A stretch of DNA of 64,000 nucleotides from Cyanidioschyzon merolae. Its lineage: Eukaryota. The stretch lies in the NCBI GenBank assembly GCA_000091205.1, contig AP006486.2, one strand, 5' to 3'. The translations under genes and the position numbers were made by a program. Below, one piece after another: positions 26,289 to 57,558 of this stretch (the stretch's first letter is position 1; each line of letters starts with the position of its first letter). A model generated the notes under the pieces. It saw only the letters and a list, made by a program, of their open reading frames with translations, had not been told where the DNA came from and ran no database searches.

Positions 26289-28824
26289 TTATCAAGCCTG
26301 GGTGTTCCCTCTGTCTCTGGTACATTCACGGATAACACCGTGTTTCTCAAATGCTCTTCGGTTCGGAAAATAGCATAGAACAGAGAATGGGACATCTCAC
26401 ACAAAACTACTTATTCTGTTTCGATTACACCGATCGATAACGTCTTTTGAGCTTCGAAGAACAGATTCAGTGAAGCAAATACAGGTATCGATGACTCAGA
26501 TCGTCCTCGGCACGAGCCAGTGATCGATGCCCTTGGCGACGCGCCTGAGGCCGACAGGCTCCTCGGAGCTCTTCCCGGAAAAGCCCTTGACACTGGAAAA
26601 TGGCGGCTTTGCGAAGAGGCATATAGAAAAGAGACGAACAAGGTCCAAACAATAAATACATATTGCTTGTTTATCGATGGATACACACACTCAAGCACAG
26701 CAGGTTTGCCGGGCGAACAACAGTATTACTGCAACAAAAGAATCCGGGAACGTTCCGAAAAAATGTGCGTACCGCTCAAAGAGAGCTCGCTCATTCTCCG
26801 GCGGGACGCCTTCCTGCACGGAGCTCGCCGCCTGGGCTTTCTCTCGAACGAAAAGCACCGCACATCGCTAGTCTACGATACAGCGGTCGTTGCGGGATCC
26901 CTTGGAATGCACTTTTTCCCCGCCGGAACACAGAGGCCGCGTACGAGAATACGCGATCCTTCACAATGTGCCCGGCACGGCGCTTAGCTCGTACTTAAGA
27001 CGGTGTACCTCGAGTGCATCGGGGACCTCGAAAAAAGCATTTCGTAGTGGCACAGTCGGCACTGATGGCCATTTCTCTCCCCAGCTCCTCGCGTACACAC
27101 ATACACGACGCGCCACAGCCGATGCCCAGATATGCAGTTTGGCCGATGCCAAGGGCGTCGCTCGCTTCGTGTCTCATATCCGCCAGGCCTCCAAGAAGGA
27201 GCACGTGGGCGAAAAATATGCATGGTCACGCTGGACCTAGCCGGCATTCACCTACAGGGTCGCGTGATGGAATCGATAATGCAGAGACGAACGGGAGAGG
27301 ACACAGTCACTAGGCTGTACCGCACGACAGAGCTCTTCATGACCGGCGCTTCGTCGAAGCCCATCTGCTCAGAGGATAGACAGAAAGAGATCGACCTCTG
27401 AAGAATACTCCTGGAAGGCGGAGAAGCCAGGGAGCAGATCGACCTGCCGCCAATGAGCAGCTTGCCCTCAGAAGCGATGCTACTTCTGCATTCGGCGTGG
27501 GGCTCAGAGCCCCTAGAGGGACCAGACCCTCGGCTTTTCCACGGGCACCGTGCTGACGCTCACATCAGCCCCGCGATGCGCGCCTGTCTCGCTTCGTTGT
27601 GGAGTGGGTGTCTCTGCGACAGATGCGAAAATGCGACTGATGGAGGACTGAAGCACCAACGAAGAGGAGGGGTTGATCGACGACATGGAGTTCATAAAGC
27701 GAAGTAGGCGCCATTCCTCCAAAGATTGAAACAATGCACGAACCGCTGGAGGAAGAAAAGCGAAAGGATTGTAAGAATGCTTCGAAAGAAATGCAAAACA
27801 TGAGGAGCAGAAGTTTCTCACAACGACGAGTGGACCTATTGGCTTCTATCAGGGCCGATGGTATAGGTATTTCGATCGCCATCAACAGCAAGCTTCCGGG
27901 ACGCTTCACGAGCCCCTCTGAGCTCGAACACACCCCATGCACAGAAATGGACTACGCGTAGGAACAAAACGCAACACAGATGCGCGGCCACGCGAAGTTG
28001 CTCCGCAATACGACACCCGTCAGCCCGGACCCAGGAAGAGCAAACCCATACACCTGCGCTCCTATGAGACCTAACGAGAGGTCAGACACGCAGGTGGCAA
28101 CCGACGCTAATTGGAAGGCTTAAGATCCGAAGTATCCGACTCTAACCTGAAGGCGTAGGCTCTAGGCGCACGTACATCATGTTCTTCTCAGCGGAACCGA
28201 GCAAATGAAGGAATGGTCCGATAAGCGAGCCAGCGAAACTGATTCTAGTTACGGAAGCGTTCGCAGCATTGCGTCGAGCTCGTGGGATCTATAGGAACGA
28301 TGGTCACCAGAAGGTAAGGTTCGTCGATGTCCATCACGGTCATTGGCTCGTGTTGTGGAGTATGTTGGCAGCAGACGGGGAGCGTGCCTCGAAGCGGACG
28401 GTGAGTTATCGAATGGAACGCTTTGCTCTTGCTCCTGCAGCAGTCATGGTGGTTTTCTAGGGAATCGCTTAGCAGAGGTCCGTGATCGTCGGGAGCGTCA
28501 CAGCGTGCGGCAACAGGGCAGAGAGTCGGGGCAGGCCATGTATACCCTCCAAGGCCGTTTGCCGAGCGATGCAACATGAGTTCACGAGCCGCAGCGTGAC
28601 GCTCGAGAAGGACGTGTGGCGGACATAAGGGAACACCTGACCGCAACCTAACATCACTGCCGCGCCGGGAGCACCGACGCTGTACACAAAGAATACGAAT
28701 GCGGCGAGCAAAGCGTGGATTAGAAACTTCAACTATGCTTCGGATGCCAAGAAAGCATCGGGAGGCGGCGAGATCAAGGTGTGAACGCTACCGTGAGCAT
28801 CGTTTGACTGCTGACAAAGGGGCC
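26289..28824. repeat. Dispersed repeat family A, copy 1 (about 2.54 kb), apparently non-coding.
   Basis: It is about 98-99% identical to 55011..57558 in the same orientation, which also gives identical or near-identical ORF-track translations at 26411/55133, 26520/55242, 27565/56287 and so on. The two boundaries are defined by where similarity with copy 2 breaks down. Confidence 0.9.
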
Positions 28825-29438
28825 GGACAAAATGAGACTCCGGCGTTCTCATGGGTAACGTTGGGAGCTGGAAAGCAAGCAGCACTACAAAAGCCCGGAA
28901 AGGCTTGTGTTAATAATAGTTAGGAGAGAGCCAGATTGTAGGTGATATATTCGGTTAGTTAAATAACTCCATTCCATTTTATTCTGACATTGTGCTACTG
29001 AAAAACCGACGTCTTCCATAAGATTAAGAAATGTGTCAACTGGGAACCAGAATCCAGAATTTCGGCGAACAATGTACCAAAATAGATTATATTGTTCTCT
29101 ACGGACATTTCCGTCCGTGCGCATGAAAGCCGCCATCGCGGGCTCCCGATGAGGCCAGCGAGATCTCTGCAGCAGCGTACCAGCGCCAGGAGACAAATCG
29201 CGCTCCAATCGATCATTGTGGTAAGTTGCTCACGACTCTCGGCGGCGTTAGTCATAGACTGTTCTCCGAGAAGGTTGCCGTCGAAACAACTTTTTGGTTT
29301 TAGACCTGTTACAAGCCGCTGTTGGAGACAGCAGCGGACTGTAAAAACGGGGCCAGACAAGTGGCCGACTTGGCAAAAGGACACGCAAGTTTCACTTCAA
29401 GCACTGCTACCTAGTACTCATCCGCTGTGTTGGCCAAA

Positions 29439-30647: not shown

Positions 30648-31433
30648 CAAAACGAGCGCGTGCTGAGAGAGCCCGTCTCTGCGGAGAATTGCAATGGTTG
30701 ATGGATGTCTTTTGCGCTCGGCACTGCCTCAGATCCGTTGCATTATCGAGCTGCTAAATCTTTGTTCACAGCTCCTGCTCTGAATTTGTTGCGAAGACCG
30801 ATATAACAATGCTAGGCCAATTGCTGCGGCGAACAGAAAGAATATGAACATGATCAGCGATCGTAAAGCGATGCGACGCATTTTGCACTTTTTGTTCCAC
30901 GCTTCGCGCCGTCAACATCCAACAGGGCGCTGGCACTTATGTCCGTCTTCGACTGACAGCAGATCTGGCAAAAAAGGGATGCTGGCGTATGAGAATCCGA
31001 AGATAGGAAGACGACAAGGAAGCTGTTGTAGAGAGAACCCTCAAAGCTTTGCGTTTTAATAGTGGAAAGAGTCCCAAACTTCAACCTGGACGCTCGTGTC
31101 GGTGGAACTGCTTCATTTCATAGTGACAGGGTGTAGTGCTGGCGAGCGGCTACGTTGGAAGCGCTCGAGCTTCTCTGCGGAAAGCTGGTTTCACCGTGGA
31201 CAACTCAAAAGGCCAGCTTCCGCAATATGTTGAGACTTTTTGTTTAAAACACCTAAAAGTCAGCGAGTGTTTGACTTTCGCAACGAGGCGCTGGCTTTCC
31301 GAGAGTTACTTACTATTAACGAAAGAGAACATTTAAAGCTCCACGGCAGGAAGCTGTTCGAAAGAAATTTGTGACTCTTTTGCACTCGCTGTGGAAACTT
31401 TGCGAAACCTTCCGTGACTATCAACTCGTTCAT

Positions 31434-32381: not shown

Positions 32382-32791
32382 AAAACTGGATCCAGCGGGC
32401 GTTAGACATCCGCAAAACGGCGCGTCTGCACTGTGCGATCTATTTACCTCCTAAATTTTAACTTTTCTTTGTGGATCTGTTGGAGTACTCAGAAATCTGC
32501 GTTGCTGTCGGATTGCGCTAAGAGGTCTGATCACGATTGTTTCCAAGAATGTACACGAAATTGTGATTTTTAGCACTTCATCGGAGTCACACTGCTGCTT
32601 GCGTATACTGGATATTTGGAAAGCAGCTGAAGGCTGAAAGCCCCAAAAGCAATTTCATGCGCACGATGCTCCGCTAGACTCTAGGAGGGGAACTTCAAAA
32701 TGGTGGAAAGAGCCAGACAGATCCCTTCTAGGAAATTACGCAACACCGGTGCAAACTTATGCCGGCAAAACGGACTAGGTCATGTGTCGTT

Positions 32792-35323: not shown

Positions 35324-36660
35324 CAACAAAAAGGGCCACAGCGTTCGGCACCCTGGCGCAAGCTTGCCTTAAGCAGTTACGTCACACGCATTCACTGAAG
35401 CACCTTCCAGTGGAGTCCAGCGGTAAACGACGCAAGTGTGCCGAACTCAACCCGGTGGACAAACAAAGTCAATCTACCATCATCAGTCGACGTCCTGGTT
35501 AGCGTTTTCAATTGGTAGGTTCGCTAAACCCCTTCAAGATTATCCCCGATCTGCAGATGCTCGAATCGCTCTGCATGCCGGTGCACGCTGCCAGCTGCAT
35601 CATGTGTTCTTGTCCTATGTTACCTGCATTCGCTGCCGACGGTCTTGCCGTCCACGCATCTATCGTACATCATCCAAACAGGTCACGCAGGCGCCCCTAC
35701 CCACTTGCGCGGAGAACCGCGGATCCGAAACTTACCACGATTTCAGGCCTCTTTTGCTTGATCCACTTGGCTCCGTTGTGCACCATCCGTCCTATGGAGA
35801 AGCTCATCACTGAGGGCTTCAAAGGTGTGCGACGAGCACCTGTGATACTCATAGCCGTTCAGCTGGGCTATTCCTATGTGGCAAGCTAGTAGATTAGCCT
35901 AGACCAGGCATTTAGTGTGTGTTAAAGAATAATATCTGTAGCGCGAACTTATTTGCGAGACGTGATATGCGCCATTGCCCATCCCTTGACTCTGCGCTGC
36001 CCTTGCGTTGGGGAGAATTGCTGTCTCTTCCAGAATGCCGCGGTTTCGAATCGCAACGAGTATATTTGTTGAGATGTGTCAATCGCGTCTGGGAGCGACG
36101 CACACAGCGCCCTGGCGCGAACGCAGCACACGCAGCGTGGCAGCTTCTGAGTCGAGCGATCGACTTCTATTCGATTGTTTAGTATGCAGTGTGGGTATTG
36201 TGCTGGAATGCTGCGGACTCTCGATGAAAAACATCATGTATCATCAGAGCGGCGATTAAGTCCCCGCTTGGGGCAAGCCACTTGTATGGTACGGTCTGCA
36301 CTGTATCAAGGCTGGACTGCCATATACTTTCGCCACGAACAATGTTCGTGGGTAACTGTTAAACTATAATTGTGTTTCATTCATCAACATGACGGAGAAT
36401 AAATCCACCAATCACATAACATGTACAAAACGTACAGACCGATTGGGCTGCAATCACCTCGGCAGGTGCGGAACGGGCACCGCATCCCCGAGGTGAGCCT
36501 GGCTCTCTGGAGCGGGCGCGCTGAGAACACCGGCCAGTAACGGGATCACTCCCACGCGAAGCGCTTCGAAATATCAAAGAACATTCTTCGTTTCGTTGAG
36601 CGTTTAACGGCATTGCCACGTGAAATTCCTCTCGTTTGGAAGTAGACGTTTTTGACTGTT

Positions 36661-40452: not shown

Positions 40453-41555
40453 ATGAGCTGCAAAGGTGCAGCTTTTGGGTTCGCCACTCTAAATGGCTTG
40501 TCAGTTCGGAGGCATTTGTTTTGTAGGAGTTCGGCAAATCTTCGAGTCTGCGGGAAGCTTTTTACTGGTTCACAATATCCACGTGCTCCAAGGTATTTTT
40601 TGGTGCACACTGACAAGAGTGCCGGCAACACTCCAAGTACACGAGGTTGGGAGGAATATGCGGGAAACTTTACTTTCAGGCCTCCGCACGTTATCGCAAG
40701 GCCCTCACAGCGCATAGCCTACAGGATTGGAAACGGTACACCGCTGCCTCCCAAAGCCCTCGTTCATTTTCTCGGGGGCGCCTTCATTGGCGCCGCGCCG
40801 CAGGTTGCGTATCGATGGTTTCTCGAGCAGTTGGCTTTAAAGGGCTTCGTAGTAGCCGCGACGCCGTATCGACTTTCCTTCGATCACCTTTGGACGATGG
40901 ATGACGTGCTCACCAGGTTTTCAGCAGCAGCGGGAATGCTCGCTCTAGATTATGATCCTATCCCTGTTGATGGGATCGGTCGCTCCTTGGGCGCTCTCCT
41001 GCACACCCTTGGAGGCAGCTTGTTTTGCAACGCGGATGGGTACAAGGCTGCCGATGTACTGATTGCATTTAATAATCGCCGCGCGGAAGATGCGATACCT
41101 TTATTCAGAGAGCTTATCGCGCCCGTAATTAAGACAGTTGCCGGACTGGTGAACTCTCTGATGTGATCCAGCGACTCGTTATCGATGGGCCTGAGACCTC
41201 TGACACTCTGTTCGACACTGTTACAGATGATGTGTTCCCTGGTTCTCGGGATAGTGAGCTTTTCGCCTTGGTGCGACAGTCAAGGGCGCTTGCGCAGCAG
41301 ATTCCACCTTTATTTGCTGAGGTCGCTGATGGAGCTTTTGCATTCAACCCTGATCCTATCGAGGTCATGGAGGCAATTCGCACACTATACAAAGTTCGTC
41401 AAACGCTTATTGTGAGCTTCGAAAACGATATCCTCGATGACTCGCGTTCGCTCCAGAAAGCACTAGACCCTGAGCGAGGCGGTACAGTAATCCGTCACGG
41501 GGGAACTCATTTAACCCACTGCGCACAGGATTTCCTGACCCACGGCTCCGAATAA
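40453..41555 (+). pseudogene. DUF1350-like alpha/beta-fold protein gene split over two reading frames (40453..41166 in frame 1, then about 41133..41555 in frame 3). It is either a frameshifted pseudogene or a sequencing error.
   Basis: ATG at 40453. LVHFLGGAFIGAAPQVAYRWFLEQLALKGFVVAATPY resembles the DUF1350 family (plant and cyanobacterial). The downstream ORF continues without an ATG (the track start is a GTG) and looks like a continuation of the protein. The two frames overlap only between a TAA at 41130 and the TGA at 41164. Confidence 0.5.
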
Positions 41556-41899
41556 GAGACTTTTTCTCCTCAGTTTCTCGAGAAGGGGATAACGATATGG
41601 CCTATATGCTCAGCGAAGCTATGTGTCGACTTGTACTTTGCGAAGCAATGCAGACGGAAAACAGTATTGTGGAGTATCTGGGCCGTGCTCCCTGACTGCA
41701 GCAACGCTCTCCATATAACTCCACGCGACTGCGTTTAAATTGAAATCGCTTGTGCGAATCCGCACGCGGCGCACTGATGAATTGCATTCAGAAATCGAAT
41801 TTATCGCCATAGCGAGAACCCTTGTTTTTGTTGGAAAACCAAAACCTGCCTCATCTTTTTTCGACGTGTATGAACGAATGAATTTGTTACACACGCCGG

Positions 41900-42800
41900 G
41901 TGTCAGGATAGCCACATATATAAATTTTTCACATGCTAAAGTATCTCCCTCTCGTTATGATCTTCGACGTGACTGATGAACACGCTACCGGTCTACATCC
42001 GCCTGATTCGAAACCCATCTTTAATTCCAATGTTTATCGCGCAGCGTTCAATAGATATTAAATACCTATTAGCCATTTGATAGAACTATTAATTGGTATT
42101 TATAGCGAGGCATACGCGGAGTGTTTATAGTACGTCATTTCACGACTATTTCCGTTGAGATGAATTTTTTGCAAAACGCTCCCTCGTAATCCGCGTTAGG
42201 CAAGGAGCGTGTCTTGCACCTGGCATCCAAAGAGCAGGTTCTTACATGCCAGAGAAGTCGTTATTCCGAGCCTGCACCCACTGAAACCGCCGAACCCAGA
42301 ACTATGTTCATCATAGCTACAATCGATTCGAACTAGAAAGTGATATACGAACCTTATTGACGATATGTTTGTTCTTGCTGTGTACTGCGGCATGCATGCT
42401 ACATGTGGAAAATCCTTCATGGGATTTTTACGGTTAGAGATATCGTCCTCTCTGCAATAACTGAAGAAATGTTTCGAATTTCTTCAATAAGAGCTCGGGT
42501 TCAGAGTCCCATGCCGCGCGTGTTTGACAAATAGTTTTAACAGCTACGATATCTCTCGGGGAGACTATTCGCTTGTTGTCGCCTGCTTTTGTTCGGGTTT
42601 CTCGGGTTGGAAGCAATATACAGCCCATTCTCAGCGGCAGCTCAAGCTAAGTCGATTTTTCTTATAGTGTGGCAAATTCTCAGGGAACTGAATTACATAA
42701 CAGCTATGCTACTTTGGGATCAAAAAAAGTTTGTATGCCTAGTCAAGGAACGCTTCATAGCCCTCCAGGCAATAAGAACAAACAGCGGAGCAGCGCTGAG
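41900..42800. other. AT-rich island (about 37-40% GC against a background near 55%) inside a 3.7-kb interval free of recognisable genes.
   Basis: Counting GC by eye in 42001..42120 gives about 37%. No conserved ORF lies between 41556 and 45220. Only low-complexity ORFs appear in the track here. Confidence 0.5.
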
Positions 42801-45220
42801 GAAGTGAGTTTCGCACTAAGTGACGAACCTTCTCACTCACTGCTCGACTACACAGTTTACCTGGTTAACTGCGAGCACGGCCCTGAACCGTGTCGTCAAG
42901 TCGTGAAAGTGTTTCGCTGCTTTGGAGCTGGCGAGCTAAACAGGGATCCATGGAAGAAGCGTCCGTTTCCCTGAAAATGACTTTTTTTCCGAGCTTCACA
43001 GATGCCACGAGCGACGGGAGGGGATGTCGAGCATCTCCCTGAGGCGCGCGTATCGAACGCGATTGCATATGCGTTGGCGCTCGTTTGCAAAACAATCCAC
43101 CGGCGGGCCAATGCATTTCAGTGCATTGTTTACGGGGTTGCTCGAGCGCGCGCAGATTTTGACAGTGGCAGCACGTGCGCGACGCGAAAGCGATGAATGA
43201 AACATGGATGATTATTTTCTCTGTAACGAATGCCATCTTGTGCCGCCAAGGTTTTTCTATGCACTGAAGTGCGTTCGTTTTTGAAAACATGTCGAAACAA
43301 AACGTCTTGGATGGCGATCTCGGAAATACTAAGAGCGAAAGCGGTCCGGACGCGTGTACAGCAGCCTTCCCCCTCGGTGCTCTAGCGGTTCTACGACTAA
43401 CGGAAATTGAGCAGTGCGCATATGACTGGGAAGGAAGTCTATGTGAAACTACAGAGAAAGGACCGGAAACAGAGGACCAGAAGGACACCATACAAACGCA
43501 GAGCCCGGGACAAAGATTTCTTCTGGGCTTTGGCTCGCCAGAGCACCGGGCCGAGCTACGAGCGCTGCTCGTGGCCGCACACGCTGGTTGTGACACGCGC
43601 ACAGTATCAGGTATTCTCTCGCCACCTAGAAGCGCTGACCTTGAAAAAGAAAAGAACTCGCTTCAGTAGTTACAGCTGGCGAAAGGAAAGCTGTCCGATG
43701 CTATACTCTGGGGTCGGGCGCTCGCCCTCTATTTTCCTCTCATTCGTATTTGTTTTCAAGTACAATTGTTTGCCGTCTATTTAGCTTCAAGAGCCGGAGT
43801 GCCAAGATTCGTATCCATTTCGCCATGTTCATGTTTGCTGGCATATGCCGTCACGGTTTGAGCAGAGGCGTACTTCGCCCCGTCGTGAACATACCTGAAG
43901 TAACGGACTAAGATATTTTCGTATAAGAACACTGCTGGCAGTCATCTATTTTGGCGATCATGACAGTGAAAGCGACTACCGTCATGCTGATGCTCGGAGG
44001 ATTCTAAGTTGCTGCCGTTCTTTGAAGTTTTCGCAAGCTATGGGCCAAAAGACTGACAAAGTCCACTTCGTACTCCGAGTTCCTTGACGACCTGTCCATG
44101 TACAGCAAGCTGGCAACGTGTACCATACGCTTACGGCTTTCAGCAATACGTAAACCAGAGGCCAAATAGAAACTTCGCAAACTCTTGAGCCCTTTGTGTC
44201 CGGCGCTGCTCAAGAGAGCTAAATCGGATGACTTTCCGCATGCTTCGATGCTGAGTCGCAAAGTCCTTCGCAGCCAATTGGAAGCCTACTCCAGAAGTTC
44301 AATGACTTCCGGGCTTCTATCCCTTGTTGCTCTTGCGTTCGATGCGCTGCACCTTAACTATGTTATAGTAGCATCGTGTTTCATGGATGCCATGCACATC
44401 TTTCTGCAGCAGAGTGTGCTCGCTGCTGCTTGTGCACTTATTCGCGTCGCCGATCAGCTGGGCGATCTGCCTTAATTTCTCTTCAATCGATGCGATTGCA
44501 GCGAAGAGGAAACAACGATCAGCAGACTGGTTTTCTCTCTTGGAAAGGCATATGTGCGCTGCACCCGCATCAGGTGTGAGCCCCAGCGAGGCGGCAATGA
44601 TGCACCCCAAAGAGATGGCATTCTGCGCTTTTCGGAACTCTTTCAGAGTGGCGTGCTGCACTTGAAAAAGATAATTTCCCACGGTGTTCATGACGAATCT
44701 TTTACCCGACTAAATGAATTTTTTTTATTTCTATAAAGTCGCGCTCTCAGAAATGCTGTACTCTTTGATGTGCAGAATCTGGGGCTGACCAGTAATTCCG
44801 CGATTGAGCTTGCTCGGAGAACTGGAGGTCAGGGAATTGAGCACGATACCGTTCCAGACACCACCAAGTAGAATGGAGCCTAGACAAGTCCTCTCGTGCC
44901 GAAACATGGTCAGAACGTTTCAGCGATCCATCAGATGCCATGTGTACTATCCCTGATGGCTCGCTCCATGCGCGGAAGTGGTCCTCGCCAGGTGGCCGAC
45001 GGCCAAACGCGGTTCCGGTCTCGCCATTAGAATATTTTGTACGCAATGCTTTGTTGACGTTCTCCTTGCCTTGTGCCGCGGCAACCGACATACTTCTGCA
45101 GGCGGAACTTTCATCTTTCGCGTGAGCAGTTATTGTCGTCTCGTTGTTTGGGAAATTCTCGATGGTAAGCTGCTCTCACTTCTCTCGCGTAGGGCCTCGT
45201 AACGGACTATCGTTGACCAC

Positions 45221-48067
45221 ATGTTCGGAAAGCCTCTTCCAGAGTGGCTAGCGGCAACGTACCCGCCAGAACCTGGAGCCTCGCTCTGTGACTCGAGAGC
45301 TTACTGGAGGTCTCACATTTTGAACTACTTTCAAAGTGTGGGATGCCCTTTGCAAGATTGGCATCTCGGTGACCGGCCTATCACGTCAGCTCGTTCGCTT
45401 CTCGACTGGATAGATGGAATTCGCGTAGGCCAGGATCCTCAGCACCGTGAGCGCTTGCGCTGGCGACCTGCTCTGAATACGCTGATGGAAGCTGATGTGC
45501 CAGTGTCAAGGTCTCAAGAGGAGCTACTCAGAACTGCTCTTGATCTTCTTCGCGGTGACGATCGGTACGTATTGATCCGAGGTCACTCGGACTCCCGCTA
45601 TGCTGGGCCGAACGCATCAGTTGCAAGACTTCTGGCTCCAGAATGGGTAGCGCTCACGCGTGCACTGGGCGACTGCGTCGCTCTCCGGCTGATCACCGAC
45701 TTCGTCTTGCTGGAAAGAGTTGGTCCCTCCTGTTACATACAACTGAGCGGACGGGTCGGACTAGAAAGGCTCTCTGCGAAGTCAGCGAAAGCACCCCAGA
45801 CTCATCGTGAAATCCCATGCGATATGCGCGGCGCTAGTCACAGACTGCATATCAACGCAGATCCGCATAGAACTGAATGTCCAACGAAAGCACGCATTGA
45901 AACATCCAAGGCACATGCTCTCCCGATTTCGACGAAAAGCATCGCGCTCGGCCCCTACGGCATAACGACAAGGAACCCGTATCTTGCCATGCATCCCTCA
46001 AAATCTAACGCCAAACGTTTGCTTGCGCTCGCTGCGGCAGGGCTGTGCTCACGCGAAGAGTATCATGGAGGGGTGTGTCTCCCTCTTCGCTGCTCCTCCT
46101 GTATTCGTTTCCTTGACGCTTTTCGCTGCATACTGGTGCGAGCGTGGGATATTCCTCTGAAGGGAATGCTCAACCATTACTGCCCATCGAAAGCAACCAC
46201 TGTGGACCAGTCTCAACCAGTTATGAAAAAATATGCCTCTTCACGCCGCTCTGTTTTCCATTTCCTCTTTGCGATATTCAGATCGATTGTTCCCACTTGT
46301 GTGTTTGAGTCCTTTACATTTGAAATCTGGGTACGGAAGGCGATATCCTCCTTCCTTCTGAGCAAAATATCTTCCACGCCTTACGATGTACGACTTCATG
46401 TCGCTCAGCTGATGGAAACGGTACAATTTCAGCAGCATCAGCCTATGTCTTTTGGCGACGCTGGAGTATGCCGCAACCATCCGCTGCACATTCAGCATAT
46501 TTTCAGCTTTCTTTTCAACGCCATCGTCATACACGTCTTCGATGAATGTTTTGTTCTCAGCGCAGCCGATCGCGCTGAGATGCGGAGATTGATATTACGT
46601 CGAGACTCGCTCTTCGTTTTCCGCACGCAAGCCATTGCTCACCTTGTACGCAGTGGCGACTTTGAACGCATGCGGAAGAATCTCGGTAAGCGAACTGGTC
46701 ACTGGACAAGTGTTCGTATTTTGCCGAAAGCGAACAGCTTTCGACTTGTTCAAAAAATGAGCCCTGACACACAGGGGAAGGAGACAACCCTAATACACGC
46801 TGTTTGCCTGTACGAGCGCTTGTCTCGACCTGAGGCGTTCGGCGCGAGCATTCGTTCTCTAACTGAAATGCACCAGCGTTGGGCCGCCTTCGTCCAGAGA
46901 TGGCGACGGTTTGGGCGACCGCCTCTTTTTGCACTATGCTTCGATATCCGCCAGGCTTTCGATTCTATACCTTTGAAGCGTTTTCTCTGGCGAGAGCTTT
47001 CGGATTTCTTTCACTCAGAGGCCTACGCGCTTCGAAGGTTCATTGTCACAGACAAACAATTTCGATTTCCACAACGAAAGTGGTTTGCCTGCCCTATTGC
47101 TGATGTCACTAGAGGTTACGACGCTTTTGCTCTGCAGTACTTGCAGTCAGCCCGCAGCAAAATTATTGCCGACGAGGGCGTGATTTGTTCGCTGCATACC
47201 GCCGATATCATTTCGCATTTACGTCGAATTATCGGAAGCAATCAAGTTCATTTTGGCGATCATTCTTCAGCGTTAATCCAGCGCCGGGGCATTCCCCAAG
47301 GTTTACCAATATCGAGCATCCTATGCGATTTTCACCTCGGATGCTTTGAGCGAAAATGTCTGAAGGATTTCCTTCGCGTTAATAGTACAAAGGATCCGCC
47401 TTCCTTATTGATGCGTTACGTAGATGATGTGTTTTTCGTAACGAGTGAAGTTTCCATCTTCCGTGCGTTTTGCAACAGGGTTCAGCAGTGCTCAAAAGCG
47501 CTTGGCGTGATGCCATCTCCCGGGAAGACTCGAAAATGCGTCGCAGGCGGTAGGAAACCCCGTATCGAATGGTGTGGCATGATTTTCGATCTGCAGAGTG
47601 CCCAAGTTCTACTACGGATGCCGCGGTCTATCCCATCGGAGGCACCGGACGCTGCTGTCTTTTTCTCGAAATGCAAAACCGCAAGCCATCCTCGAATCCT
47701 CCGACGGTTTATTTCCATTTTCGCCTCCCAGATGCAGTCAGTATTCCTTGATCTCTCCATTAACGGCCCTGAAACTGTGAAACGGAATATCTGCACTGCA
47801 TTACGCCTAGCCCTTAACCGCATCGGTGAGGATGATCTGAGAAGTTCGCTGCGAGAGAAACCAGCTCAACGCATCCTGTTGCGATGGCTACGTCAAACGA
47901 CCATGAATCGATGCTGCCGCTGGGAGCCGTTGTCGGAACAAACGCCACAAACGTACCGCAGTGAACTGAACCGAATCCTCTGCGAAGGATTTAGGATAAT
48001 CTTACACAAATGCATTCACAACGAAGATTGTTTTCAAGGCTGTCGTGCTGCTTCAAGCTGTGCGTGA
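45221..48067 (+). CDS. TERT: Telomerase reverse transcriptase (TERT), 948 aa in a single exon.
   Basis: RT motifs match TERT: motif 1/2 VRILPKANSFRLV (human RFIPKPDGLRPI), motif A LFALCFDIRQAFDSIP (hhDVTGAYDTIP), motif B' RGIPQGLPISSILCDFHLGCFE ([22 protein letters not shown]), motif C LLMRYVDDVFFVTS (LLLRLVDDFLLVT) and motif E IEWCGMIFDL. The upstream T/CP-like region and the N-terminal extension are consistent with a TEN/TRBD region. ATG at 45221. Confidence 0.85.
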   Translation: MFGKPLPEWLAATYPPEPGASLCDSRAYWRSHILNYFQSVGCPLQDWHLGDRPITSARSLLDWIDGIRVGQDPQHRERLRWRPALNTLMEADVPVSRSQEELLRTALDLLRGDDRYVLIRGHSDSRYAGPNASVARLLAPEWVALTRALGDCVALRLITDFVLLERVGPSCYIQLSGRVGLERLSAKSAKAPQTHREIPCDMRGASHRLHINADPHRTECPTKARIETSKAHALPISTKSIALGPYGITTRNPYLAMHPSKSNAKRLLALAAAGLCSREEYHGGVCLPLRCSSCIRFLDAFRCILVRAWDIPLKGMLNHYCPSKATTVDQSQPVMKKYASSRRSVFHFLFAIFRSIVPTCVFESFTFEIWVRKAISSFLLSKISSTPYDVRLHVAQLMETVQFQQHQPMSFGDAGVCRNHPLHIQHIFSFLFNAIVIHVFDECFVLSAADRAEMRRLILRRDSLFVFRTQAIAHLVRSGDFERMRKNLGKRTGHWTSVRILPKANSFRLVQKMSPDTQGKETTLIHAVCLYERLSRPEAFGASIRSLTEMHQRWAAFVQRWRRFGRPPLFALCFDIRQAFDSIPLKRFLWRELSDFFHSEAYALRRFIVTDKQFRFPQRKWFACPIADVTRGYDAFALQYLQSARSKIIADEGVICSLHTADIISHLRRIIGSNQVHFGDHSSALIQRRGIPQGLPISSILCDFHLGCFERKCLKDFLRVNSTKDPPSLLMRYVDDVFFVTSEVSIFRAFCNRVQQCSKALGVMPSPGKTRKCVAGGRKPRIEWCGMIFDLQSAQVLLRMPRSIPSEAPDAAVFFSKCKTASHPRILRRFISIFASQMQSVFLDLSINGPETVKRNICTALRLALNRIGEDDLRSSLREKPAQRILLRWLRQTTMNRCCRWEPLSEQTPQTYRSELNRILCEGFRIILHKCIHNEDCFQGCRAASSCA

Positions 48068-49207: not shown

Positions 49208-51610
49208 GAGCAGTGAATCCCGGAACAAGTGCATCAGCTCGCACTTTCCTTCTTGTTCCATTTGTCACAAGTACTCATCAAAAGAAATGTATATTTTAGA
49301 TCGGAGAAAGGTCCCGAAAACATTAGATTTCGTCACTGCTAGCTTCCCCGGAAAACGAGCTTGCTTCTTCCAGCCTGTTATTCGTCGGTCAGCAGGCGGA
49401 TACATCCCCGCCCTTCACGTATTGCTTATCCTGAACGTTGTGCTTCCACAACAGAACTTATCAAACCCGCTGGACGCGACGGTCGCCTCGTCAATCCGTT
49501 CCTCCCCATACGTTCTCGGTGAGATACCACCAAAGAAGTCACAGCATGCGCAGTTTCCCCATCGGTGATACAGGCGGAGAAAAATACGCCCGGATGCAAG
49601 AGCAAAACGAACATGCTTCTTCGGGAGACCGTCGCGCATTGAATGAAGCACCCCTCGTTTCGCACTGGAGCGCGAAGGCCTCGCACTCGACGGATGTTCG
49701 TCTCGATATCCTGAACCTTATGCCCGACAAATGGTAGACATGTGCACGGCGACTCGAGCAGGGTCAAACCGCTGTTCGTGCAGCAGAGACAAGAGAGCAT
49801 GATGACAATATCGGCCCTAGCGACGGTGCTATCCTGTGGTCGCCTACGTATCGCGATTCGGACAGGATTGGTCAACGCCTTAGCCTTCGTCGAGGAACGC
49901 TTCGCGGCTTCTCCTCCACCATGTCATTCTATGCTGTTCTTCGTAGACTTCGCTTTCCGTGTCTTAGACGCTGTCAAAGAGTACGCAGGTGGAACTAGCG
50001 CTGAGCCGCCCTTCACGTCAGACTATTCTTCCTGGTTCAATGCGTCGAATGCATCTTGTCTGTTATCAGACACCATCTCTGTGCTCACTCACCTATAGAC
50101 GAGTCATTCGCATCCGTAAAATTATTCTTCAACGAGTACGTCTTCGAGAACAGGTCCTGTACTTTCACTGGGCCTGAATTGCTGCGTTCCTCCTGCGCTC
50201 TTTCTGCTGAGGGAGCGCAGAGGCGCGCTCCGTGCCGCGAGCGTACTCGCCACGGAGAAGTCTGTAATGAGGCACTTGAGCAATCGTGGTTGCTTGCGTA
50301 CACAGAAAAGCACGAATGTCAGCGCCGTCGTCCGCACCGTGTGCCTGAGTCCCAGGAAAAAAGGATTTGGATTATAGCGACAACATCCACACTACTCCGC
50401 CAGCGAGACGACGGGGCGACGGAGAAAGACAGGAAAATGCCGGACAAACAGGAAGTGAATGATCCTCCCAGAAAGAGGACGAAGAAGAACCAGAAGGGAA
50501 AGCGGCCGGGGCAGACATATCAGCGAGAAACAGTTGCCGAAGCCTCTCTACGGAAACACATCAATGGGGGCAAGCCTCCAAGATGTGGGGTTCAGGACAC
50601 CATTCGGGATTTCGAGGCTTCTCACTCGAGGAAGTCTCCACGGGCTTCTCTCGCCGAGGCGCCCGTCGTCAAACACATGTTCGCGTGAGTGCTGGACGCA
50701 GAGCTCCCCGCGCTCCAGGCTCCTCTGGATTTTGCCAAGTAAATCTTCGACCGGCAACGCAGCTGATGCTCGCGACGGTGGATGCAGCACGGCCTGATCG
50801 AAGAATCAGGGACTTGTATGAATGCCTCTGAGCGTACGATGACTCGTCGGCGCGCCGCGTCGGCAACAGGAACGTCTACAACGCAGGTGCCACAGATGAA
50901 ATGAACCACCAAAAATTCAAGTTCCTTGGCGGGTCATTGTTGAGCACCTCACCGGGCATACCCAGTCAGCGTTGTACGCTTGTGCACTCACACCAGTGGT
51001 CCGGAGCGTGAGCACTGATGGAAGGGGTTCATAGGGGTGCCCATGGAGGCAAGTGACGAGCTGGAGGCTACGGAGGAGCGCGAGATGGCAGCGAGTTTCG
51101 AGAAGATGCCGCAGCAAGAGCGGTGGGCGCTTCAGATCGTTCAAGTTTATGGTGCTGCTGAGGGCTATTGGACCGCCGAACGTCGTTCCTGAGTATGTTT
51201 GAAGCGCGACGCCTGCCATGCTTGCATGTTGCGCTACTTCGGTTTCCTGAACAAAACCTCCACTGTAGAGCACCCTCCCTGGCCGAGTCCGAACTCCCTG
51301 GCCTACTCAAGCGCTTCTTGGACGCGGTCCATGCACGCGACTTCTAGGGCCACGATATTACTGTACTGTACTGCACTGCAGTGTACTGGACTGCACTGGA
51401 CTGCACTGCACTGTACTGCACTGTACTGTACTGCTCTGTACTGCACTGCTCTGTACTGCACTGCACTGTACTGCTCTGTACTCCTCTGTACTGCACTGCA
51501 GTGTACTGGACTGGACTGGACTGCACTGCACTGGACTGCACTGTGCTGTGCTGTGCTGTGCTGTGCTGTGCTGTGCTGTGCTGTGCTGTGCTGTGCTGTG
51601 CTGCACTTGA
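49208..51610. repeat. Dispersed repeat family B, copy 1 (at least 2.4 kb), apparently non-coding. Its 3' part is a pentamer minisatellite.
   Basis: It is about 97-98% identical to 61773..64000 in the same orientation (constant offset 12565 until the minisatellite). The ORF-track translations are duplicated at 49742/62307, 50056/62621, 49426/61991 and so on. Copy 2 is cut by the window end, so the true 3' boundary of the family is unknown. Confidence 0.9.
51354..51608. repeat. Minisatellite of degenerate (T/C/G)ACTG pentamers, about 38 units, followed by about 12 perfect CTGTG units.
   Basis: Direct reading gives tactg tactg tactg cactg cagtg tactg gactg ... then ctgtg repeated 12 times across 51541..51602. 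It generates long spurious ORFs on both strands (51199..51870 +, 51344..51616 -). Confidence 0.95.
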
Positions 51611-53341
51611 CCGCACTGCCCCGTCCTATCCTATACTGTACTACCTGCTCAATGAGCTACAACTGGTCTTTGCGAGCACATATGAAGCACTCGAGCATCT
51701 TTACGAAGAGCATTGGCGGGGGCCGTTCAAGGTTGTTTCTTGACGCAGAGTCCAAGGAAGGAACTGGACAGGTGCAGTGCAGACCGACGGAATATCCCTC
51801 TGGTTGCACTCTGTTCAGTCGATACCCGAGTCCCGCAAAGAGGCTCGTTTCAATCGCTCATCGTCGATGAAATCTAAAATTTCGCGGCGGGTGTAGGTCC
51901 CGGGTTGCAGGACGTCATAGCTGTCGCCGTGCTCCCAGGTCAGGACGACGAAGCCAAGGGCCTGAACTGAAAGCAGCTGGAGAAGCTAAATGTTTCCAGA
52001 GCTCCGTCTTATTGAGGGTCGCGCATGACAGGTGTCAGAAGGCATACCGACAGATGGAATGGACGCGGCAGGACCCAGATAGACGCCCTGAATACCGTGC
52101 GGAGCAGAGGTGGTCCTTCGAACGCTTCAGCCGAAGATTGCGTGAGCGTCTGAATGGCTCGTGCGGAAGGCGTCTCTGGCAGGCGTACCCGAGGCCGCGC
52201 TGAGGTCGCCAACTTTTTCGGTTGCACGGAGACAAGAAACGTCCATTGACCGTCCACTTCCATATATTGGAGAAGGAAATGACCGACAAGTCGCTTCGTT
52301 CGAAGGCAGCGTAGGGTTCTTGATGTGTTGCGGCGTGCAGTGGCTCCACTCTTGCTCGTCGAATGCGAGCGCACGACAAGTGCAGGAATCGACTCTTCAG
52401 GAATCCCATCGGTGAGTTCGGGACGACAAACACTCCTTGCGGACACGGGTGTGCGCTGAAACCGATTGAGAAGAAGCGAGTGAAGCGCAGACAGCTGTAT
52501 GAGATGGTGTACGGCAGGGTGACCAAACCTCAGATACCGGTGCATTCGAAGGCGAGCGGCTTTGTATAGTGCGATTCTACCAGCAAGCTTGTGCGCAGGC
52601 GCTTTCTGCAGCGAGACTTGAACGTCCCGCTCAACGTTCGGAAATGTCACGTGCCTCCGGAGCGCTCAGCGGCTTTGCATCGAGCGGGTTGTCGGGGAAG
52701 AATCGTTCGCTTCTCAGCGTAGGCATTGTGCTGGAGCGCTGAGGACTCCCGATGCAGAACAAATCAGTAGCCGGGATCGAGGATCGTGGATTTCCGCCTG
52801 GAGCAAGACACTGGTATGGAACGGTGTATCAGTTCGGAATAGGCTGGAGTGCCGCTTATCTAGATCGGGAAAGACTTTCGTAGGCAACTGATGAGTGATT
52901 ATGGTGTAGGATTACTCAATAAGATGGGCAAAGTTGAGCGAGCCCTGTCGTCAACGCCGTGCCTGCGTTAGCGACGGCTTTCGCAGCTGTATGCCAGGCT
53001 TCCTGACACCAGCGGATTCGGCGAACGAAAATATTTCGAAGTTCAAAAAATTCCTGACGACCTCGATTATTCTGAGATGTACATAGACGAAATTCGTGGA
53101 TTCCTGACAACGCATCTGGCTCGAGAATTGTACGCACCACAGACTGGATCCTAATCGCAGATCTGTTCATTCCTGTGGAAGAGATAAATGCGGGTCGTTC
53201 GCTCGTCGACCTTGACACCTCTAAATCGCAACATCATCCGTTGTTCATCGATGTGGAGGAGCCTCAAAGCAACAGCTCAGCTAGTGTCTCGCAAAATGCG
53301 ACTCGTGCGAGCCTGCTGAGCGCAAATCCTCAGAGAGGCTT

Positions 53342-54148
53342 TCACGAACTTTTGTTAGATTGTCGCTCCGAGCATCGCATTCGTCGAGCAACTGCTGCAA
53401 CAAATGGAAGCAGAATCTTCCCAGTAAGGTCATCGATCAAAAGGATATTGTACAGGGCCGAGGCCGCCCAGACGACTTTTCGAAGGCCTGCTCCAGGTGG
53501 CGAGGCCGGTTGCCCTCGTTTGCATGATAGTTCGTGCCAGAGGATGATTCTTCGCACGACCTCCACTCTTGCAGGTGGTACACATATCAGGGTAAATACA
53601 GACGGCGGAGAATCATTGGCTCCCTCCACAACAAGCTGATAAACGAAGCAGTCCGCTTCGAGGTGCTCTTTGGACTGAGACACCAGAGATAGACCGTCGA
53701 GAATCGAGTTGAGCTCTACTGCACCAGTTTCCCGCTGCAATAGATTCATTGAACGTTTCATGGTTTCTGCAATGAGATCCTTTTGAATAGGCGTGTCGCT
53801 ATCGGTGTTGTAGAGTGCGACAGCAACAAAGTCGACAACCAAAGGACCAAAGTTCGGAAACTGCGAGAGCATATAGTCCAGGATAACGCGCTCTGCCCAT
53901 GACGAGCGACCTTTCGCTCCAAACACTAGAGCGCATACCGTCGCCTGCGGGGAAGTGGACTGTCCGAAGTGGGGAAAGACCTTCTCCGACAAAAAACCAT
54001 AGATTCCTTCTGTTGCTGGTGCAGCCGCTACAGATACCCCTTGCGACAAGGGCAGACCCAAAAGACTGGAACCTGATAGGTCTCCACGGCTTGAACTGGT
54101 ACCCGGCTCCCAAAACGAACTTGGTTCTGTAACTATGAGAGTTTCCAT
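53342..54148 (-). CDS. Hypothetical protein (268 aa), no recognisable family.
   Basis: The ATG-initiated ORF has a non-repetitive sequence with mixed hydrophobic and charged composition. An alternative overlapping ORF (53799..54242) looks less protein-like. Confidence 0.35.
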   Translation of the reverse strand: METLIVTEPSSFWEPGTSSSRGDLSGSSLLGLPLSQGVSVAAAPATEGIYGFLSEKVFPHFGQSTSPQATVCALVFGAKGRSSWAERVILDYMLSQFPNFGPLVVDFVAVALYNTDSDTPIQKDLIAETMKRSMNLLQRETGAVELNSILDGLSLVSQSKEHLEADCFVYQLVVEGANDSPPSVFTLICVPPARVEVVRRIILWHELSCKRGQPASPPGAGLRKVVWAASALYNILLIDDLTGKILLPFVAAVARRMRCSERQSNKSS

Positions 54149-55010
54149 ACCTTGTCTGCGGAAACCTGTTCGAAGCAGAAACCGGCTCGACGAATTGCTC
54201 TGTTTGCACTTTTGCGAAATCCGCGAACAATCTCGTTGGCAACCGTCGCTCAGTGCCGATGCATTTCGAGAGCGCTCTGTTGATGTACTTCCCCTAAACC
54301 TATTTCAGATTCCATTGAAACACTCAGCAGCCTATTCAGTTCATGCTTTTCGAAGTTTTTCGAAATTTGTTGCCCGATATCCAGCCTCGACAATGGTGGG
54401 ACAGCAATAAAGCTACACAGTTTCAAACGTGATTTTAGGGTTCTCAGTCGTCTTTCTGGAAAAGCTACATCTAACCAATGCCGCTGGAATTCGTTACGTC
54501 TCGGGTATCAAAATGATTCGCGATGCAATGGAGCAAGACTTCAACTTAGCCGATATCATCATCAAAATCGTACAAAGAAGGTTCCAATATTCTCCATTAC
54601 CTTTCGCGTTGTGTGGTTAAATAATGTTTCCTTCAAGTTTGTAATGTTTCTATTTCAAGGCAACTCATGAATGCAGGAATTCGCGGAGCAGAATTGAAGA
54701 TAAAAAATCTCGACGTCGCCCATTGACGGTTAATTTACAAGCTCACTCAGTATAGTCACTAAATTTGTCACGTCAGGTAATCGGTATCGTTCGAATGACA
54801 AATGCTACTCTCTATCCAGTGAAGAAATAAGATTCGACACAAGACTGGTGACTTTCACAGGGGATGATGCCAGAGACTCTCGTCTGTTATGTGTCCATAG
54901 AAATGGATCTTCGACTCGGACTTCAGTTCTCGCACAATCTACGTCCAGTGGAAAGGTACATAATCGCTTTTCAGGAGCGAAGCTTCGATGGACCGAAATT
55001 CCGCATCTTA

Positions 55011-57558
55011 TTATCAAGCCTGGGTGTTCCCTCTGTCTCTGGTACATTCACGGATAACACCGTGTTTCTCAAATGCTCTTCGGTTCGGAAAATAGCATAG
55101 AACAGAGAATGGGACATCTCACACAAAACTACTTATTCTGCTTCGATTACACCGATCGATAACGTCTTTTGAGCTTCGAAGAACAGGTTCAGTGAAGCAA
55201 ATACAGGTATCGATGACTCAGATCGTCCTCGGCACGAGCCAGTGATCGATGCCCTCGGCGACGCGCCTGAGGCCGACAGGCTCGTCGGAGCTCTTCCCGG
55301 AAAAGCCCTTGACACTGGAAAATGGCGGCTTTGCGAAGAGGCATATAGAAAAGAGACGAACAAGGTCCAAACAATAAATACATATTGCTTGTTTATCGAT
55401 GGATACACACACTCAAGCACAGCAGGTTTGCCGGGGGAACAACAGTATTACTGCAACAAAAGAATCCGGGAACGTTCCGAAAAAATGTGCGTACCGCTCA
55501 AAGAGAGCTCGCTCATTCTCCGGCGGGACGCCTTCCTGCACGGAGCTCGCCGCCTGGGCTTTCGCTCGAACGGAAAGCACTGCACATCGCTAGTCTACGA
55601 TACAGCGGTCGTTGCGGGATCCCTTGGAATGCACTTTTTCCCCGCCGGAACACAGAGGCCGCGTACGAGAATACGCGATCCTTCACAATGTGCCCGGCAC
55701 GGCGCTTAGCTCGTACTTAAGACGGTGTACCTCGAGTGCATCGGGGACCTCGAAAAAAGCATTTCGTAGTGGCACAGTCGGCACTGATGGCCATTTCTCT
55801 CCCCAGCTCCTCGCGTACACACACACACGACGCGCCACAGCCGATGCCCAGATATGCAGTTTGGCCGATGCCAAGGGCGTCGCTCGCTTCGTGTCTCATA
55901 TCCGCCAGGCCTCCAAGAAGGAGCACGTGGGCGAAGAATATGCATGGTCACGCTGGACCTAGCCGGCATTCACCTACAGGGTCGCGTGATGGAATCGATA
56001 ATGCAGAGACGAACGGGAGAGGACACAGTCACTAGGCTGTACCGCACGACAGAGCTCTTCATGACCGGCGCTTCGTCGAAGCCCATCTGCTCAGAGGATA
56101 GACAGAAAGAGATCGACCTCTGAAGAATACTCCTGGAAGGCGGAGAAGCCAGGGAGCAGATCGACCTGCCGCCAATGAGCAGCTTGCCCTCAGAAGCGAT
56201 GCTGCTTCTGCATTCGGCGTGGGGCTCAGAGCCCCTAGAGGGACCAGACCCTCGGCTTTTCCACGGGCACCGTGCTGACGCTCACATCAGCCCCGCGATG
56301 CGCGCCTGTCTCGCTTCGTTGTGGAGTGGGTGTCTCTGCGACAGATGCGAAAATGCGACTGATGGAGGACTGAAGCACCAACGAAGAGGAGGGGTTGATC
56401 AACGACATGGAGTTCATAAAGCGAAGTAGGCGCCATTTCTCCAAAGATTGAAACAATGCACGAACCGCTGGAGGAAGAAAAGCGAAAGGATTGTAAGAAT
56501 GCTTCGAAAGAAATGCAAAACATGAGGAGCAGAAGTTTCTCACAACGACGAGTGGACCTATTGGCTTCTATCAGGGCCGATGGTATAGGTATTTCGATCG
56601 CCATCAACAGCAAGCTTCCGGGACGCTTCACGAGCCCCTCTGAGCTCGACCACACCCCATGCACAGAAATGGACTACGCGTAGGAACAAAACGCAACACA
56701 GATGCGCGGCCACGCGAAGTTGCTCCGCAATACGACACCCGTCAGCCCGGACCCAGGAAGAGCAAACCCATACACCTGCGCTCCTATGAGACGTAACGAG
56801 AGGTCAGACACGCAGGTGGCAACCGACGCCAATTGGAAGGCTTAAGATCCGAAGTATCCGACTCTAACCTGAAGGCGTAGGCTCTAGGCGCACGTACATC
56901 ATGTTCTTCTCAGCGGAACCGAGCAAATGAAGGAATGGTCCGATAAGCGAGCGAGCGAGCGAGCCAGCGAAACTGATTCTAGTTACGGAAGCGTTCGCAG
57001 CATTGCGTCAAGCTCGTGGGATCTATAGGAACGATGGTCACCAGAAGGTAAGGTTCGTCGATGTCCATCACGGTCATTGGCTCGTGTTGTGGAGTATGTT
57101 GGCAGCAGACGAGGAGCGTGCCTCGAAGCGGACGGTGAGTTATCGAATCGAACGCTTTGCTCTTGCTCCTGCAGCAGTCATGGTGGTTTTCTAGGGAATC
57201 GCTTAGCAGAGGTCCGTGATCGTCGGGAGCGTCACAGCGTGCGGCAACAGGGCAGAGAGTCGGGGCAGGCCATGTATACCCTCCAAGGCCGTTTGCCGAG
57301 CGATGCAACATGAGTTCACGAGCCGCAGCGTGACGCTCGAGAAGGACGTGTGGCGGACATAAGGGAACACCTGACCGCAACCTAACATCACTGCCGCGCC
57401 GGGAGCACCGACGCTGTACACAAAGAATACGAATGCGGCGAGCGAAGCGTGGATTACAAACTTCAACTATGCTTCGGATGCCAAGAAAGCATCGGGAGGC
57501 GGCGAGATCAGGGTGTGAACGCTACCGTCAGCATCGTTTGACTGCTGACAAAGGGGCC
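55011..57558. repeat. Dispersed repeat family A, copy 2 (about 2.55 kb).
   Basis: It is about 98-99% identical to 26289..28824, with a constant offset of 28722 at the 5' end. It carries a copy-specific (GCGA/GCGAGC) microsatellite expansion at about 56941..56966, which accounts for most of its extra 12-14 nt. Confidence 0.9.

Follow-up and report, generated by a model that had tools for sequence, protein, structure and literature searches.

The 64,000-nucleotide stretch of DNA analysed here (the window) belongs to chromosome 4 (513,455 bp) of the alga Cyanidioschyzon merolae 10D and includes the gene for V-ATPase subunit a (BAM79169). It contains two near-identical segments, called family A, that lie 28.7 kb apart on the one chromosome. 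Family A is made up of the tail of a dead transposase gene, then a spacer, then some 93% of a Fanzor1 gene that is likewise dead. The two segments are parts of two old transposons, and a recent copying event probably made them alike.

The repeat pair

Copy 1 occupies 26287-28845 and copy 2 occupies 55009-57580, both on the + strand. Self-BLAST of the window aligned them in direct orientation with 98.37% identity over 2572 columns (29 mismatches, 2 gap openings, E = 0). A MAFFT alignment of the copies with their flanks showed an abrupt 5' edge at 26287/55009. High identity continues to about 28824/57558, and up to this point the copies are separated by 27 substitutions, scattered over the whole tract, and one 12-nt indel. 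Divergence begins beyond it, and the extra 21-22 nt at the 3' end of the BLAST match are already degraded. A first-pass annotation, made from the letters alone, had described these near-identical direct copies with limits of 26289-28824 and 55011-57558, which are correct to within 2 nt. It had also noted a GCGA expansion in copy 2, which is a 12-nt (GCGA)3 at 56946-56957 (+ strand), absent from copy 1.

The longest open reading frame (ORF) in either copy has 155 amino acids (aa). There is no conserved ORF, and the amino-acid differences between the copies to which the annotation pointed are real. The 155-aa ORF was considered as a gene and rejected; it has no homologue outside its own cluster (90% identity or more), and its N-terminal part is an out-of-context tail of the transposase frame. 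The + strand has a strong A-over-T skew. The alignment with flanks revealed no inverted repeats or long terminal repeats at the tract ends, as had been reported, and no target-site duplication at the boundaries. Family A contains neither long terminal repeats nor a reverse transcriptase and thus lacks the marks of a retrotransposon. An ORF of 948 aa at 45221-48067 was tried as a long interspersed nuclear element of which family A and a second repeat pair, family B (described below), would be truncated 3' ends. This ORF, the only one in the window for a reverse transcriptase, is the annotated telomerase, and the retroelement reading of family A was therefore removed.

Each locus was recovered with its own flanks from independent metagenome contigs, copy 1 from L001 and L037 and copy 2 from L027, L044, L055 and L060. 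The orthologues of each locus are 98.4-99.5% identical to it. Near-identical family A sequence was found at these two loci only, among all the metagenome and Logan contigs retrieved, which form the basis of this copy number. The annotation had named an assembly duplication of a single locus as a case to be considered, and its probability is practically nil. Logan unitigs do merge the copies into 2.5-kb repeat-only contigs, and two metagenome contigs join the upstream side of copy 1 to the downstream side of copy 2. The 10D genome is finished, however (PMC1955436), and the copies differ at the 27 sites and the indel as well as in the old tails that follow them. In addition, the independent assemblies keep the two sets of flanks apart.

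The two joining contigs, L042 (Ga0207433_10008066) and L065 (ENA ERZ27247235 k141_213270), come from independent assemblies. They run from RHD3, a clathrin adaptor and Img2 through a single family A copy to an HD-domain protein and GPDH. Such a junction, which would remove the 28.7 kb with the ALAD and telomerase genes, is probably an assembly chimera formed across the repeat, though it may be a real pop-out or a rearranged allele.

An old family of elements with inverted repeats

Sensitive searches showed that the last ~450 bp of family A have two relatives of ~60% identity in the window, one at 15540-15978 (+) and an inverted one at 25943-26201, immediately 5' of copy 1. A conserved 19-base motif has 4 matches in the window against 0 expected. 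It retrieved 58 metagenome loci. The module is present in 37 of them and groups at 90% identity into 17 clusters; the family thus has at least 17 distinct loci in related metagenomes, ~60% identical to one another. Comparison of extended metagenome sequences defined a homologous unit of ~1,380 bp, well conserved in length, with about 58-63% pairwise identity and inverted-complementary ends. The consensus terminal repeat CACCCGTGTCAGATTAAAATGGAAC and its complement are each bordered by TA, and the two consensus ends are inverted-complementary over ~25-28 nt with 3 mismatches. These repeats sit at the ends of the element and not at the ends of family A. A minus-strand coding remnant was also considered. 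The minus strand of the 3' end of family A resembles 15489-15867, but this is homology at the DNA level and the true frames lie on the + strand.

A profile of the short-form unit (1401 positions) was searched against the window with nhmmer. Copy 2 lies within a complete long-form element of 3.43 kb at 54297-57729 (+), with a left inverted repeat, a dead transposase gene, a dead Fanzor1 gene and a right inverted repeat. The ends were read directly: the left repeat, AACCTATTTCAGATTCCATTGAAAC, is at 54297-54321 and the right repeat, GTTTCGTTGTATTTTGACGTAGGTG, at 57705-57729 (both given on the + strand). The repeats are degenerate: when the right end is reverse-complemented, it agrees with the left repeat in 16 of 25 positions. 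TA dinucleotides at 54295-54296 and 57730-57731 border the element. It is laid out as the family 5' part (profile 3-803 at 54293-55090, +), an extra segment of 2.05 kb and the family 3' part (profile 791-1394 at 57140-57734, +). The 5' 800 bp match the family consensus with an nhmmer E = 2e-95. Family A covers profile ~722-803, the extra segment, and profile 791 to ~1240.

The element that holds copy 1 is truncated at its 5' end and spans 26287-28995 (+), with a TA following at 28996-28997. A single uninterrupted match to profile 791-1384 covers 28406-28990 (+). The old 3' tail of this element, 28846-28995 (+), corresponds to profile ~1240-1394 and includes the right inverted repeat. A separate, ancient 3' fragment of the family (profile 882-1394) lies inverted at 25772-26268 (-), 18 bp from the truncated 5' end of copy 1.

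Most members of the family are internal-deletion derivatives of 1.4 kb. The extra segment has older relatives, 58-62% identical, that adjoin family ends in contigs L021 and L045. Thus the long form is ancient and the common 1.4-kb form derives from it by internal deletion. The window holds a full-length short form of 1.35 kb at 14795-16140 (+; profile 40-1396), in which the N-terminal two-thirds of the transposase are fused to the C-terminus of Fanzor1 (positions 551-659 of the Fanzor profile). It also holds a small ancient 3' fragment at 30947-31128 (+; profile 1191-1383). One old copy elsewhere carries a 64-bp tandem duplication of profile 754-817, present as two units in L051 (~5400-5530) and four in L054 (7784-7911). 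The spot is that of the internal-deletion junction of the short form (~791-803).

The transposase gene

The coding content of the family can be seen in a majority consensus only. The search for a conserved ORF or codon periodicity gave no signal in 11 diverged short copies, nor in pairs of long forms, as is expected under neutral decay after insertion. The majority of 10 diverged short copies was therefore translated. Its first + strand protein shows the motifs of an IS630/Tc1-mariner transposase, '...VIDETAFHS...GYAPRG...FIMDNIAFHK'. After repair of one frameshift it matches PF13358 (DDE_3) with 37.3 bits (cutoff 28.6; E = 2.9e-9), and it has weak Pfam matches to HTH_33 and HTH_Tnp_Tc3_2. The consensus element thus has what defines a Tc1/mariner-IS630 transposon, a DDE_3 transposase with N-terminal helix-turn-helix domains and terminal inverted repeats.

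DNA homology to the family profile places the decayed transposase gene of the copy-2 element at approximately 54380-55260 (+). Translation of the frames showed remnants of its second and third catalytic motifs, 'FTDNTVFLK' and 'TTYSASITPIDNVF', at ~55040-55200, inside family A. In a short metagenome contig, L063 (ENA ERZ27301260, 1,114 bp, GC 33%), the C-terminus of a DDE_3 transposase is followed ~170 bp downstream by a Fanzor start. The gene order of transposase then Fanzor is confirmed by this succession. The Fanzor of L063 is an internal-deletion derivative in which residue 23 is followed by residue 540 (1-23 and 540-756 are kept), and it lies directly behind the transposase C-terminus.

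The Fanzor1 gene and its intact relatives

The second consensus protein has a TnpB/Fanzor C-terminus, '...DIWEHLTTAKCHRC...NRDLNAAINILRLLTTEL', with the RuvC-III motif 'NRDLNAAINI' and a match to Cas12f1-like_TNB at E = 1e-4. A word-index protein search with this C-terminus found two fragments only. Full-length relatives were obtained by an exhaustive HMMER search seeded by a metagenomic relative, P0069. Their proteins are uninterrupted, 680-800 aa long, and are encoded on GC-poor metagenome contigs. These contigs were taken as Galdieria-like, a label that reflects composition and sampling context only. One of them, L064 (ENA ERZ27265933, 2,977 bp, GC 33%), carries the uninterrupted 756-aa Fanzor1 P0071.

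The intact relatives (P0071-P0099) match by BLASTP the known Fanzor1 protein CMe-1 (E = 3e-13), to which they are ~24-28% identical, and SWv-1 of white spot syndrome virus (WSSV; E = 6e-17). Three of them pass the Pfam TNB cutoff. Their alignment is invariant at the DPG of RuvC-I, the glutamate of 'WE..TT', a C4 zinc ribbon and the RD.NAA.NI of RuvC-III. A Protein Data Bank (PDB) search from a single relative gave no match; a search with the relatives' profile succeeded, and its best matches are the solved Fanzor1 structures of Parasitella (9cf0, E = 4e-9), Spizellomyces (8gkh) and Guillardia (9cer). The BLASTP, Pfam, motif and PDB results together identify the intact relatives as Fanzor1 proteins. 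Activity of the family may persist to this day in a thermoacidophilic relative.

With these proteins the decayed gene could be traced in the window. A tblastn search with P0071 and P0073 gave collinear + strand matches in the family A copies, with linked E values down to 1e-20 to 8e-22. In copy 2, residues 3-135, 141-258 and 254-373 of P0073 align to 56052-56411, 56540-56956 and 56958-57317 (linked E 8e-22). Tblastn and nine collinear segments of a profile hidden Markov model (HMM), covering positions 58-645 of 687, give a detected part of 55612-57535 (+) for this copy, and the whole gene probably spans ~55440-57680. In copy 1 the detected part is 26805-28801 (+), from ten collinear profile-HMM segments (positions 30-645 of 687).

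The catalytic motifs are present as remnants. Copy 2 has 'SPDPGRANPYT' for RuvC-I at ~56750 and 'RDQGVNATVSIV' for RuvC-III at ~57500-57540, with a stop directly after it. The 'WE..TT' glutamate is lost in the family A copies, which have multiple stops and frameshifts, and for these reasons they cannot be nucleases. The motif D-X(125,275)-[TS][TS]-X-X-C4 zinc finger-X(5,50)-RD is present in the intact relatives and in the consensus, and in family A only remnants of it are left. Family A is a Fanzor1 pseudogene and not a functional member. The first-pass annotation had judged protein-level selection unlikely, which is correct. Covariation for a guide (omega) RNA would not be expected among copies in neutral decay. 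Its label 'non-coding' holds in that no intact gene is present, but the sequence derives from two protein-coding genes of a transposon.

The same annotation had proposed a structured non-coding RNA locus. For an RNA gene family, or a selected long non-coding RNA, could be cited the lack of intact ORFs, the A-over-T skew and the transcription of interspersed repeats in C. merolae (PMC1955436). The whole window has 0 Rfam matches at the gathering score, however, and a tRNA scan of it found no tRNAs. Collinear remnants of two protein genes fill the whole length of family A and explain it, the old members show no constraint beyond neutral decay, and the 27 differences between the copies are spread along the tract. 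The RNA reading is thus highly improbable.

A weak Fanzor1-like remnant also lies at 35958-36215 (-), between an 845-aa ORF and a DUF1517 gene (tblastn with P0074 residues 45-130, E = 2e-4). By way of its L001 orthologue, the region can also be aligned with a part of family B (70% over 141 nt).

Why the two copies are alike

The two tracts end inside elements that are otherwise old. Before the 3' boundary the copies are 98.8% identical (419 columns), and after it 43.9% (189 columns). The tails beyond, 28846-28995 and 57581-57729, are ~44% identical to each other, and each is 38-45% identical to other family members, which is the background level. On this 3' side both loci stay within one uninterrupted match to the family profile. 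Identity drops within ~10-30 nt past GACTGCTGACAA, the most conserved block of the whole family, which encodes the codons that come after RuvC-III. On the 5' side copy 2 runs in register into the old transposase region, and copy 1 stops 18 bp from the inverted family fragment.

This in-register mosaic of near-identity and old divergence argues for ectopic conversion or templated repair, and against transposition or random duplication. We consider it likely that family A comprises the interiors of two ancient, dead Tc1/mariner-IS630 elements that carried Fanzor1, and that recent homology-guided copying, not transposition, made them alike. The full element is ~3.4 kb long, with terminal inverted repeats, probably bordered by TA, and a DDE_3 transposase gene followed by a Fanzor1 gene. 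Members of the family would have inserted long ago and decayed since, to ~55-62% mutual identity today. Ectopic gene conversion, or double-strand-break repair from a template, would then have copied a tract of at least 2.56 kb between the two old elements of this chromosome, in either direction. On its 3' side the tract would have been resolved just past the RuvC-III codons, the most conserved stretch of the family (DNA motif GACTGCTGACAA), and its 5' end would be the truncation point of the copy-1 element. Efficient homologous recombination is established for C. merolae from gene targeting (for example PMC3764038).

Transposition would make family A a currently or recently mobile non-autonomous element, another of the proposals in the annotation. 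The transposon origin of the sequence agrees with that proposal, and recent mobilisation of dead elements is conceivable from the family B pair, which covers a whole element end to end at 98.8%. The making of the family A pair does not agree with it. The boundaries of family A are internal to the element (profile ~722 and ~1240) and have neither inverted repeats nor a target-site duplication, in-register family homology of the old level (~44-60%) extends past the 3' boundary of both copies and past the 5' boundary of copy 2, and all the contigs fetched show two loci only. Transposition of family A is thus very improbable and largely refuted.

A segmental duplication, the nearest of the three explanations first offered, has recent copying between the loci in common with what we propose. 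What we propose differs in that the copying ran between ancient elements already in place and ended in register on the 3' side. As a homology-independent event it would have placed 2.56 kb near old elements, or duplicated a larger region whose ends were later overwritten or deleted. The non-homologous 5' junction of copy 1, 18 bp from the inverted fragment, fits such an event, as does the presence of a second high-identity pair, family B, interleaved within the same 40 kb. Random insertion, however, would not leave the family alignment gapless across the 3' boundary (one nhmmer match, 791-1384), and a stop 10-30 nt from the most conserved block of the family is not expected by chance. A larger duplication is opposed by the intervals between the A and B copies, since A1-B1 and A2-B2 have nothing in common. 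On balance a homology-independent duplication is unlikely.

Several points weigh against homology-guided copying between two transposon interiors. First, homologous recombination at only ~55-60% identity is normally very inefficient, and the copying may have needed short conserved blocks or microhomology. Second, the 5' junction of copy 1 is out of register with any + strand family sequence, so that either one tract end or more was formed by non-homologous joining, or a later rearrangement altered the copy-1 element. Third, the genome may hold a further near-identical copy, or a source element that is younger, elsewhere. The identity of the elements also has its weaker points. The translations and fragments of the family A copies themselves have no Pfam match at E <= 1, and the putative protein assignment of family A rests on collinear matches, weak to moderate, together with DNA homology to the consensus. 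A TA target-site duplication is weakly supported, with a TA in 7 of 24 flanks across copies and in both flanks only at the copy-2 element; the shortfall could be explained by decay and alignment offsets.

The copying event is older than strain divergence, as each locus has its own metagenome orthologues. At sites 26360, 26487 and 26593 and their copy-2 equivalents, both 10D copies share one allele and the contigs of other samples, at both loci, share the alternative. Such shared strain alleles hint that conversion has recurred; metagenome assemblies that are chimeric at repeats could also produce them. A broader reading is that, in this haploid and readily recombining alga, dead Fanzor/mariner copies are repeatedly homogenised by ectopic conversion despite ~55-60% identity, with ultra-conserved coding blocks such as the RuvC-III codons as resolution points. 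It fits the family B pair within the same 40 kb and the strain-specific alleles common to both family A copies, and is put forward as a doubtful, speculative extension. If true, it would mean an unusual regime of concerted evolution for very diverged repeats in a minimal eukaryotic genome, and homogenisation could at times rebuild longer elements from fragments.

Comparison with known elements

Bao & Jurka (2013) reported that mariner elements of other taxa have captured Fanzor1 genes; one such element is PUl-1, of 3,620 bp, with 24-bp inverted repeats and a TA duplication (PMC3627910). PUl-1 of Pythium ultimum and PGv-1 have the same layout as the family described here, inverted repeats and a transposase followed by Fanzor1 in ~3.4-3.6 kb. 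They also share with it the TA flanks (consensus and copy-2 element) and the internal-deletion derivatives. The likeness to PUl-1 is one of architecture, of DDE_3 and Fanzor1 domain matches, and of the transposase motif of PUl-1 as printed, which was read by eye. The present family differs in its host lineage, Cyanidiophyceae, in that all C. merolae copies seen are dead, and in a less firm TA duplication. Compared with the solved Fanzor1 proteins (8gkh, 9cf0, 9cer), the intact relatives keep the catalytic motifs, whereas the window copies are without the glutamate and have stops and frameshifts.

In C. merolae itself a single Fanzor1 family, CMe-1A, has been described (3,169 bp, ~150 copies, no inverted repeats, unclassified; PMC3627910). 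The finished genome was reported to have few classical transposons and a 3.2-kb interspersed element in 253 copies, ~5% of the genome, that carries a truncated ORF weakly similar to WSSV WSV486 (PMC1955436). These were later named 'WSV repeats' and are often marked by trimethylated lysine 27 of histone H3 (H3K27me3; PMC5405695). CMe-1A, or TE-N2_CMe, is probably this WSV486-related element of Nozaki 2007. The idea in the first-pass annotation that dispersed repeats would be unusual in this genome does not survive these counts, nor the ~15 kb (24%) of the window that is Fanzor debris.

CMe-1A resembles the family A elements in host, in Fanzor1 superfamily, in dispersal and in similar element size and age (copies ~80% identical to consensus), and is transcriptionally repressed according to the literature. 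It has no inverted repeats or transposase; the family A elements have both. In a sensitive blastn search the CMe-1A consensus matched the window at 7804-8181 and 14186-14733 and nowhere in family A. WSSV SWv-1 gave no tblastn match in family A at E <= 10. Thus the family is separate from CMe-1A. The CMe-1 protein and the family consensus have the RuvC-III motif alone in common (E = 0.018). Since SWv-1 does not match it, family A may not be counted among the 253. No description of the family was found in the searchable literature, Repbase not being covered.

Ectopic gene conversion between dispersed repeats is documented for yeast Ty elements and for mammalian repeat families. The present pair resembles such cases in its sharp-ended near-identity inside diverged paralogues on one chromosome, with a boundary beside a conserved block. 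It differs in that the partners outside the tract (~44-60%) are far more diverged than the usual substrates, in that one junction is non-homologous, and in that the putative mechanism is read from sequence.

Taken as a whole the finding is largely ordinary, dead DNA transposons bearing Fanzor1, and its mildly interesting part is the recent copy tract between very diverged copies. An anonymous 'non-coding repeat' becomes annotated as a dead transposase gene and a dead Fanzor1 gene. C. merolae gains at least two families of Fanzor1-type elements in addition to CMe-1, the only one on the 2013 list, and the mariner-plus-Fanzor layout of one of them is known from oomycetes and algal viruses. With its in-register identity mosaic the pair is a clean, small case of homology-guided copying between old repeats. 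Outside the window, the 680-800-aa relatives could be candidate heat- and acid-tolerant RNA-guided nucleases.

Other features of the window

Self-BLAST detected family B as direct copies at 49208-51433 and 61773-63998, 98.8% identical, the second of which reaches the end of the window. Its full extent is 49208-52930 and 61773-64000, at least 3.7 kb, and it is another dead Fanzor1-type element; CMe-1 residues 329-700 align at ~30% to 51633-52701 in three frames. A (TACTG)n array lies at 51359-51650. Unlike those of family A, the boundaries of family B coincide with the limits of homology to old relatives of ~60% identity in L054, L005, L020 and L048. The family B pair therefore covers the whole element, and it could reflect recent mobilisation or whole-element conversion.

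Fragments of CMe-1A are found at 7804-8181 (-), 14186-14422 (+) and 14481-14733 (+). Among them, one is a 5' piece like TE-N2_CMe and another is an internally deleted copy immediately upstream of the short form at 14795-16140. The Fanzor debris of the three families adds up to ~15.3 kb, or 24% of the 64-kb window, compared with a literature genome average of ~5% for the interspersed repeat. With about a quarter of the window as element debris, the result is relevant to how repeats and H3K27me3 are annotated in this model alga.

The lowest G+C of the window, 0.47-0.48 compared with ~0.52-0.55, is at 41000-44000, a gene-poor region upstream of the telomerase gene. Beside the copy-2 element, a 268-aa ORF with an ATG start at 53342-54148 (-) recurs as a called protein, identical or nearly so, in several metagenome and Logan assemblies; it had no NCBI accession at look-up. 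This ORF may be a gene that escaped annotation, or it may be spurious though conserved.

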